Assembly (NCBI RefSeq): GCF_013167455.1
Contig: NZ_CP038328.1
Source of the DNA: Escherichia coli O157:H7
Lineage (GTDB): Bacteria; Pseudomonadota; Gammaproteobacteria; Enterobacterales; Enterobacteriaceae
Reading direction: 5' to 3' (one strand)
DNA: 64,000 nt
The notes beneath the pieces are model-generated. The model made no database searches and was not told the origin of the DNA. It was given only the letters and a program-made list of their open reading frames with translations. Position 1 is the first letter of the stretch; every line of letters begins with the position of its first letter. The position numbers were made by a program, and so were the translations under genes. Shown in pieces: positions 1,412 to 1,780 of this stretch.

Positions 1412-1780
1412 GTGGTTCATCCCCTTTTTGCCGCGGCTATGAAGGGGATAGCCAACAATGACCCCACGACTCATCTCAATTATCTCGCCATGACCTGGCT
1501 AAGTCCCAGTCCGATCTCTTGCCGTCGCGTTCACGCCTGAATGACTTCTCCTGAACTTAAGTCTCAGACCTATTTGGCCGGTAATCCCTCTCAAATTTGC
1601 TCCTTTTGCGTTCCGCCTTACATCAACCTGTAACAGAACCAGCCATTTTCTGCGTAATTGTGATCTGAGTTGTAAAACGCAGATTATTATCTGTGTTTTA
1701 CATGTTTAATGTTGACCTCAAAAATCATGTGGGTAAGTATGATGACCATCTAAGCAAAACAAAACACAGAGGATGACGCA

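Follow-up and report, generated by a model that had tools for sequence, protein, structure and literature searches.

Predicted phased operators for the DeoR-family regulator YdjF at the ydjL and ydjF promoters of Escherichia coli

Oligomeric repressors of the DeoR family use palindromic or tandem operators, and in E. coli DeoR and GlpR act through several cooperative sites in interplay with CRP at sugar promoters. The DeoR operator is a 16-bp palindrome (TGTTAGAA/TTCTAACA) with long-range looping, and GlpR binds tandem 20-bp operators with a different half-site. In this study we examined an inverted repeat in the spacer between yeaC and ydjL, at the head of the ydjLKJIHGF sugar-acid cluster, in a 64-kb stretch of E. 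coli O157:H7 DNA (the window). The natural substrate and the regulation of the cluster are poorly understood, yet its promoter switches on in the mouse gut, and the regulator that it encodes, YdjF, is still counted among the uncharacterised transcription factors of E. coli K-12. With a probability of roughly 65%, the repeat is a mirrored pair of adjacent operators, O1 and O2, that would be bound by YdjF.

The ydj locus would share with DeoR and GlpR the palindromic or tandem operators, the several cooperative sites and the interplay with CRP, but neither operator sequence matches the ydj motif. The DeoR-type regulator FruR of Bacillota has four TGAWWGWTTT repeats upstream of the -10 and spanning the -35 (PMC11906611). 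Like the regulator proposed for ydj, FruR is a DeoR-family, sugar-phosphate-responsive protein encoded with a catabolic operon, its several phased repeats lie directly upstream of and over the -35, and it represses by excluding RNA polymerase. The Firmicute ydj promoters have exactly this tandem layout. The ydj motif differs from that of FruR in sequence (ATCTGTGAAAC-type) and in its period of ~21 bp per unit, against ~10 bp for the FruR repeats, and in Enterobacterales two mirrored units, for which YdjF binding is predicted, give a long inverted repeat. TagR of E. coli Nissle 1917, a DeoR-family repressor of a sugar cluster, has two related ~19-bp units, tagO1 and tagO2, which are adjacent, on opposite strands and at the promoter with a CRP site just upstream (PMC12226905), much as at ydjL. 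The TagR units, themselves only predicted, are unrelated in sequence to those of ydj (CTTTCAAAATGAAAGTAAA) and lie over the start site, not over the -35 and the region upstream of it. The predicted ydj operators are of a familiar class, phased DeoR-family sugar-regulator operators combined with CRP, and introduce no new regulatory principle. The proposed sites of the regulator are undescribed in the searchable literature.

A motif shared with gut Firmicutes

Many Enterobacterales carry the complete ydjLKJIHGF cluster with a YdjF orthologue, and it occurs as well in Lachnospiraceae, Eubacteriaceae, Ruminococcus, Enterococcus, Anaerococcus, Megamonas and one Atopobiaceae genome (loci L023-L046). 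In the Firmicutes and Atopobiaceae YdjL is 76-85% and YdjF 41-56% identical to the E. coli protein. Because YdjL is this similar, the sequences imply a recent exchange between phyla of the cluster together with its regulator and putative operators. YdjF is the sole regulator among the cluster genes mapped, with an orthologue in nearly every fetched cluster, and its helix-turn-helix segment VTEETIRRDL is almost invariant across orthologues.

Every 16-mer from 12 Firmicute/Atopobiaceae ydjL upstream regions was ranked as a seed for expectation-maximisation. The top-ranked seeds were TCTTTGAAACAGAAAA, ATCTTTAAAACAAAGA and ATCTGTAAAACAGAAA. Training used the ydjL upstream regions of Firmicutes and Atopobiaceae only and no enterobacterial sequence. 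In the final model the site frequency was fixed, since a free frequency drifted to poly-A; the early seed ranking is the unbiased part of the procedure. Expectation-maximisation with one global background locked onto G+C-rich Atopobiaceae sequence and was dropped, and k-mer enrichment was uninformative, since A-rich words prevailed against a background of whole loci that were mostly coding.

In the Firmicute/Atopobiaceae upstream regions the unit, for example AAATCTGTGAAACACAGA or AAATCTTTGAAACAGAAA, is present in 1-5 direct copies. Under the converged model the copies are regularly phased, with start-to-start spacings of 21, 20 and 20 bp in L027, 20 and 21 bp in L037, and 21 bp, then 21 and 20 bp, in L038. 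A spacing of 21 bp was found in L036, L025, L030, L042 and L040, with 20 bp in L024 and 22 bp in L023. The promoter-proximal copy of these arrays overlaps a TTGAC- or TTGAA-type -35, with a good -10 at 17 nt. In some genomes the unit is clearly palindromic, as in TTCTGTGAAACACAGAA (L037), TCTTTGAATCAAAGA (L025) and AAATCTGTGTTTCACAGATTT (Serratia, Enterobacillus).

The motif was then scanned against both strands of the full window, comprising 127,964 positions. The best match of the window falls in the ydjG-ydjF spacer, and the matches at both promoters are given in Table 1. Only 61/127,964 positions score at least 7 bits, and three non-overlapping ones are inside 1669-1724. Among 1000 column-permuted motifs, 4 had their top match in the ydjL or ydjF promoter region and none placed 6 of its top 60 matches in these regions, as the real motif does. 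When 29 intergenic-like segments were compared, the ydjF spacer ranked first (18.3 vs 9.3 bits). The ydjL spacer segment ranked fourth, a lower bound, as the crude segmentation cut it at 1717 at a spurious antisense open reading frame (ORF).

The same motif was applied to 22 other Enterobacterales loci of ~21 kb each. In 19/22 the top match is the right-arm unit O2 (AAATCTTTAAAACACAGA, ~90 bp before ydjL, 14-23 bits), and in the remaining 3/22 another site of the ydjL or ydjF promoter comes first. The best three matches include one 71-95 bp upstream of ydjF in 19/22. The K-12 allele of O2, AAATCTGTAAAACACAGA, reaches 20.1 bits, the highest score in the 14-kb K-12 locus. A plus-strand equivalent of O1 reaches 11.3-11.9 bits in Citrobacter and Intestinirhabdus, and the right half of O3 keeps CAAAGAT in Klebsiella and Citrobacter.

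Anatomy of the ydjL promoter

The earlier note described a perfect 8-bp inverted repeat with a 16-nt spacer, ~80-110 bp upstream of ydjL. Both the repeat (spacer gcagattattatctgt) and its position, 110 to 79 bp before the ATG at 1781, were confirmed, and the gene assignment was right, with yeaC, ydjL, K, J, I, H, G and F in order. The symmetry is in fact more extensive than was reported. Arms at 1671-1684 and 1689-1702, with 4 nt between them, are complementary at 13/14 positions (93%, one G:T). The window holds 47 perfect 8-bp inverted repeats with spacers of 0-20 nt, compared with 24 +/- 6 in first-order Markov simulations, and the chance of at least one is 9% in a 369-bp spacer of the same composition. 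Because such repeats are this common, the 8-bp repeat by itself is not significant. The palindrome with 14-nt arms (at most 1 mismatch, loop 3-8) is the single case in 64 kb, and none arose in 30 simulated windows or 2000 simulated spacers. The arms were the same as those of the window in all but 2 of 12 other Escherichia sequences, from 10 E. coli and two other Escherichia species; O55:H7 has TGTAAAGC and TUM17543 has GTGTTACA.

Loci with YdjL relatives were drawn from a single genome for each species. Across 26 Enterobacterales sequences the similarity sets in sharply ~125 bp before the ydjL ATG, in a block that contains the repeat; its sequence is TATTTGTGATCTgAGTTGTGAAATGCAGATCattATCTGTGTTTTAAAGATTTaaTGTTGACC, followed by 17 nt and AAGTAT. 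The 8-bp arms outside Escherichia, TGTGAAAT and GTTTTAAA, are complementary at just 5/8 positions; the exact 8-N16-8 symmetry is therefore a feature of Escherichia. Beyond Escherichia, the general features are the ATCT/AGAT boxes and the TGTGA/A-rich cores. These conserved boxes are at or past the inner and outer edges of the 8-bp arms, and one of them is mutated in the window strain. The proposal that the repeat is a candidate operator for the DeoR-type regulator is supported by the comparative evidence, but the conserved unit is not the 8-N16-8 repeat, and the left arm also overlaps a CRP-like half-site. Each of the Escherichia changes that perfect the repeat moves an arm toward the motif consensus (left, TGTGAAAT to TGTAAAAC; right, GTTTTAAA to GTTTTACA), and as read from the sequences these substitutions do not require selection for a hairpin.

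The conserved unit is ~17-18 bp long, ATCTGTG-AAA-CACAGAT-like, and recurs every 20-21 bp, which is also the period in Firmicutes. On one strand the ydjL units begin at 1666, 1687 and 1707, 21 and 20 bp apart, and those of ydjF at 8131 (weak), 8152 and 8172. O1 and O2 each consist of a half-site, an A/T-rich centre and a half-site. The centre is AAAA in O1 and TTTT in O2, so the two are mirror images and form the long inverted repeat. Their facing half-sites are 6 nt apart (CGCAGA-TTATTA-TCTGTG), as they are in L037 (CACAGA-AAAGAA-TCTTGT).

The conserved hexamers downstream of O2 place the predicted ydjL transcription start near 1746-1747. A promoter scan offered an alternative pair, TTTACA at 1697-1702 and AAAAAT at 1720-1725; the units overlap the predicted core promoter under either pair. 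The ydjF promoter has a -35 TTGAAA at 8177-8182 and, after 17 nt, a -10 GATAAT at 8200-8205. This TTGAAA-17-GATAAT promoter is listed for ydjF among promoters recognised by RNA polymerase only (PMC3946193).

The inverted repeat itself does not fit the TGTGA-N6-TCACA dyad of CRP. The best CRP candidate in the ydjL promoter is probably 1656-1677, which matches the consensus at 13/22 positions by direct comparison and whose TGATC is invariant in 23 Enterobacterales sequences. The ydjLKJIHG operon is listed as Crp-activated, and its promoter was bound by Crp-cAMP in electrophoretic mobility shift assays (PMC8085971). ydjF is among the CRP targets from genomic SELEX (systematic evolution of ligands by exponential enrichment). 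Since the CRP-like site overlaps O1, a repressor on O1 would also hinder CRP.

The window strain carries a degraded allele of O2. The box next to the right arm is ACAGATTT in K-12, ACATATTT in O55:H7 and ACATGTTT in the window (changes at 1703-1704; also 1685). The longer context is GTTTTACAGATTT in K-12 and the other sampled lineages, GTTTTACATATTT in O55:H7 CB9615 and GTTTTACATGTTT in the window. Through two successive substitutions O2 has lost its conserved AGAT box, and its score has dropped from ~20 to ~9 bits, a loss of ~11 bits. The 71-nt allele of the window is found identically in 295/5426 complete E. coli genomes, and the examples listed are O157:H7. The K-12 allele is identical in 1596/5426, and most of the others are 1-3 bases off K-12. 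The O157-specific changes provide a natural pair of operator alleles for comparison.

Proposed regulation and alternative explanations

The regulator gene lies in the cluster, the motif co-occurs with its orthologues in distant genomes, phased copies sit at the core promoter, and a site is present upstream of the regulator's own gene, all as expected of an operator of the cluster's DeoR regulator. The enterobacterial CRP system is missing from Firmicutes, so YdjF is the best assignment for the shared motif. Repression is favoured over activation because the hexamers of the Firmicute and ydjF promoters are near consensus and the -35 is in every case under a unit. RNA polymerase by itself binds the ydjF promoter (PMC3946193), which likewise argues for repression rather than activation. 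The ydjL promoter fragment was off in pre-gavage cultures and on during mouse gut transit (PMC6561318).

We propose the following model. In the absence of inducer, YdjF oligomers would fill O1, O2 and O3 cooperatively on one face of the helix. The bound protein would block RNA polymerase at the -35 and the region upstream of it, and CRP at its overlapping site, whose centre is near 1666.5. Release of YdjF would come from a phosphorylated intermediate of the pathway, by analogy with other DeoR-family repressors perhaps the product of the YdjH kinase, after which Crp-cAMP could activate the weak -10 promoter. The corresponding units at 8152-8189 would let YdjF repress its own promoter as well.

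Several points weigh against this model. The searchable literature on YdjF yielded no YdjF binding experiment and no description of a YdjF operator. The ydjL start is predicted, and the sole 5' end of the ydjL leader traced in the literature is ~477 nt upstream, inside yeaC. O2, the strongest unit, has its centre upstream of the -35, near -50, which would suit an activator as well. The palindromic unit is clear in some genomes (L037, L025, Serratia), and generally just the left half and the A-rich centre are seen. O1 is a weak match in the window with a poor left half, and the O3 score may come partly from its -35 box, since the training set held units overlapping -35 boxes. Finally, the Enterobacterales loci are related, so that 22/22 does not amount to 22 independent trials; the direction of the test, from other phyla to Enterobacterales, is independent.

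The position of O2 is the starting point of one alternative, in which YdjF binds the same units as an activator, like FucR, or as a dual regulator, and recruits polymerase from about -50 and -70 to a weak -10 promoter. O2 is centred ~50 bp upstream of the predicted start, beside and not over the -35, the -10 AAGTAT matches at 3/6 positions only, and a DeoR-family FruR turns activator with its effector (PMC11906611). The geometry is equal, however, at the ydjF promoter, which is recognised in vitro by RNA polymerase alone, and at Firmicute promoters whose near-consensus -35 and -10 need no activator. The -35 is always overlapped by a unit, the cluster is silent in laboratory culture, and Crp already serves as activator, and we consider an activating YdjF improbable. 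It is quite improbable that the motif is bound by a protein other than YdjF, or that the E. coli left arm is the right half of a CRP site with its symmetry to O2 incidental. Such a reading would suit the binding of CRP-cAMP to the ydjL promoter fragment, the recovery of ydjF by genomic SELEX, the TGTGA words at both promoters and the TGATC, the most invariant part of the block. It does not account for the motif in Firmicutes and Atopobiaceae, which are without CRP-dependent catabolite control of this type, or for the 21-bp phasing of three units, which is no feature of CRP. The right arm and O2 are unlike TGTGA-N6-TCACA, and among the cluster genes that were mapped YdjF is the sole regulator, with an orthologue in nearly every fetched cluster.

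The palindrome could instead be an RNA hairpin in a long leader starting inside yeaC, acting as a terminator or attenuator, as a stability element, or through sequestration of the Shine-Dalgarno region 1761-1770 by 1690-1699. Its predicted fold is strong (-17.8 kcal/mol, z = -5.1), a scan flags it as terminator-like with the tail TGTTTAATGT, and 1690-1699 and 1761-1770 are perfectly complementary over 10 nt. In the reporter of Adams et al. the ydjL leader is taken to start inside yeaC (the primer begins GCACAGCATATGACAATTGAC, window ~1304), and Rho terminates within ydjL, with a strong Rho-dependent termination region at K-12 1861188, ~144 nt into ydjL (window ~1925). The stem has 14 pairs, only 4 of them G-C, and is A/U-rich, and the tail is interrupted. 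Against a conserved hairpin, the 23 Enterobacterales sequences gave no covariation: 85.4% of cells were paired compared with 85.9% in shuffles, the score was no higher than in shuffles, there was one compensatory pair only, and pair 20-50, which forms in E. coli, is unpaired in 17/23. No Term-seq 3' end among those listed by Adams et al. for K-12 under the tested conditions is near the hairpin, and the Rfam covariance models gave no match at E-values up to 1 on either strand of window 1100-2000. At ydjF and in Firmicutes the motif occurs as direct repeats unable to form a hairpin, and the element would be absent from transcripts of the conserved proximal promoter. An RNA role is unlikely on this evidence, and we give it little weight. 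That the repeat is a chance or neutral palindrome without function is scarcely credible. Although 8-bp inverted repeats are frequent, as the 47 in the window and the 9% per such spacer attest, the 14-nt version never appeared in simulations, the block is conserved across genera and essentially invariant over the sampled E. coli lineages, and it matches a motif learned in other phyla.

With YdjF as a repressor at O1-O2-O3, induction of ydj becomes testable on three phased ydjL units, the first of them overlapped by a predicted CRP site, and two to three ydjF units. Candidate effectors could be screened with purified YdjF and promoter fragments, and the regulon in many gut bacteria defined with the motif. 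A wider and doubtful scenario combines these elements. The regulator and its operator code may have travelled with the ydj cluster between Bacillota/Actinomycetota and Enterobacterales, keeping the motif, the 21-bp phasing and the -35 overlap. In the O55:H7 to O157:H7 lineage O2 would have been degraded in two steps, leaving enterohaemorrhagic strains with leaky or otherwise changed control of a pathway that is induced in the gut. More remotely, the palindrome as an RNA hairpin in yeaC read-through might influence Rho termination in ydjL.

Features of the locus and minor observations

Table 1. Features of the ydjL and ydjF promoter regions in window coordinates, with motif scores from the both-strand scan.
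Feature	Position	Strand	Sequence	Remarks
CRP-like site (predicted)	1656-1677		AATTGTGATCTGAGTTGTAAAA	left half TGTGA 1659-1663 perfect; right half TTGTA 2/5
Predicted operator O1, weaker unit	1666-1686			contains left arm; overlaps right half of CRP-like site; 21-bp phase with O2
O1 motif match	1669-1686	-	TAATCTGCGTTTTACAAC	rank 59, 7.1-7.3 bits; left arm
Left 8-bp arm	1671-1678		TGTAAAAC	read directly; within 14-nt arm 1671-1684
Near-perfect palindrome, 14-nt arms	1671-1702			centre TATT; only such in window
Predicted operator O2, main unit	1687-1707			contains right arm; degraded in window strain at 1703-1704
O2 motif match	1690-1707	-	AAACATGTAAAACACAGA	rank 23, 9.0 bits; right arm
Right 8-bp arm	1695-1702		GTTTTACA	read directly; within 14-nt arm 1689-1702
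Predicted operator O3 and motif match	1707-1724	+	TAATGTTGACCTCAAAAA	rank 9, 11.7 bits; over ydjL -35 hexamer; 20-bp phase with O2
Probable ydjL -35	1711-1716	+	TTGACC	TTGAC[C/T] conserved in 26 Enterobacterales sequences (TTGATT in Budvicia)
Probable ydjL -10	1734-1739	+	AAGTAT	17-bp spacer; position conserved; AATTAT at same spacing in Serratia, Enterobacillus
ydjL coding sequence	1781-2857	+		first gene of regulated operon
Weak first ydjF unit	8131-8148	+	TTTCTGTGAAAACTGTGA	<2 bits; 21-bp phase with next; listed for phasing only
ydjF motif match	8152-8169	+	AAATCTGTGATTCAAACA	rank 1, 19.5 bits; ydjG-ydjF spacer; best match of window
ydjF motif match	8172-8189	+	TTATTTTGAAAGTAAACA	rank 10, 11.0 bits; 20 bp after the first; overlaps ydjF -35
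ydjF coding sequence	8244-9002	+		DeoR-family regulator proposed to bind the units; Pfam HTH_DeoR (2.9e-17) and DeoRC (2.4e-49)

The window is E. coli sequence in reverse-complement orientation relative to K-12. Its genes run gapA (minus strand), msrB, yeaC, ydjL, ydjK, ydjJ, ydjI, ydjH, ydjG and ydjF, and the cluster ORFs are intact. The yeaC-ydjL spacer is identical to that of Shiga toxin-producing E. coli strains and 96% identical to that of typical E. coli. The spacer (window 1400-1800) was found in 4333/5426 complete E. coli genomes only, so the ydj cluster is absent or truncated in about one fifth of strains. In strain KTa005 just the yeaC-proximal third of the spacer is left.

Other identities were considered for the repeat and rejected. 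The TyrR box is TGTAAA-N6-TTTACA. The reported arms contain TGTAAA and TTTACA, a resemblance in words alone, as the hexamers are 20 nt apart and not 6 and the arms outside Escherichia are TGTGAAAT and GTTTTAAA. A LexA box does not fit (CTG and CAG are 7 nt apart, not 10), nor does a LacI/GalR/Cra-type operator, as a contiguous dyad of 14-16 bp is lacking. With a single copy in each of 4333 genomes and no other in the window, the repeat was also rejected as a repeated or mobile element.

Additional unit-like sequences were seen in the Firmicute loci. High-scoring units at intervals of ~21 bp occur either downstream of ydjF or in front of transporter genes at L036 15894-15932, L025 15801, and L028 20076-20113 and 8367-8436. 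As these are outside the regions used for training, they suggest additional regulated promoters. In Megamonas (L040 9946-9984) the stretch from the promoter to ydjL holds the palindromes ATGTTTAcaaCAAACAT and ATGTTTAaaaTAAACAT at a distance of 21 bp; their 7-3-7 layout and phasing are those of the ydj unit, their arms differ, and they may be a variant operator. Changes in the YdjF recognition helix could not be related to operator variants such as that of Megamonas, the helix being nearly invariant.

Within the ydjL promoter region, TCTGTGTTTT (1690-1699) is fully complementary to AAAACACAGA (1761-1770), which abuts and overlaps the ydjL Shine-Dalgarno sequence GAGGA. This pairing could sequester the ribosome site in read-through transcripts. 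Alternatively, AAACACAGA may be another half-site-like word; the motif gives no score at this word in 1761-1770. A GATC (Dam site) in TGTGATCT, at 1662-1665, is invariant across 23 Enterobacterales sequences. A second GATC 20 bp downstream (CAGATC, 1682-1685) is present in K-12 and most genera and is lost in the window strain (CAGATT).

A separate hairpin, ATCCCCTT...AAGGGGAT (1419-1449), directly follows the yeaC stop codon, and yeaC has its 3' end near 1458; the primary yeaC 3' end listed from Term-seq by Adams et al. is at K-12 1861655, which is window 1458. The Escherichia-specific part of the spacer holds a direct repeat, TAAGTCCCAGTCCGAT (1500-1515) and TAAGTCTCAGACCTAT (1558-1573), 81% identical and 58 bp apart. 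A predicted GalR operator-like sequence, GGGAAAACGATGCCAC, lies within the 5' end of ydjI at K-12 1857732-1857747 (PMC5110547), which would be window ~5366-5381 if the two are colinear. Just upstream of the ydjF start codon, TGATGTAAAAAGATACAGGG (8216-8235) is the reverse complement of a degenerate LexA site proposed for an unconventional LexA target from chromatin immunoprecipitation on microarrays (ChIP-chip) (PMC3542263).

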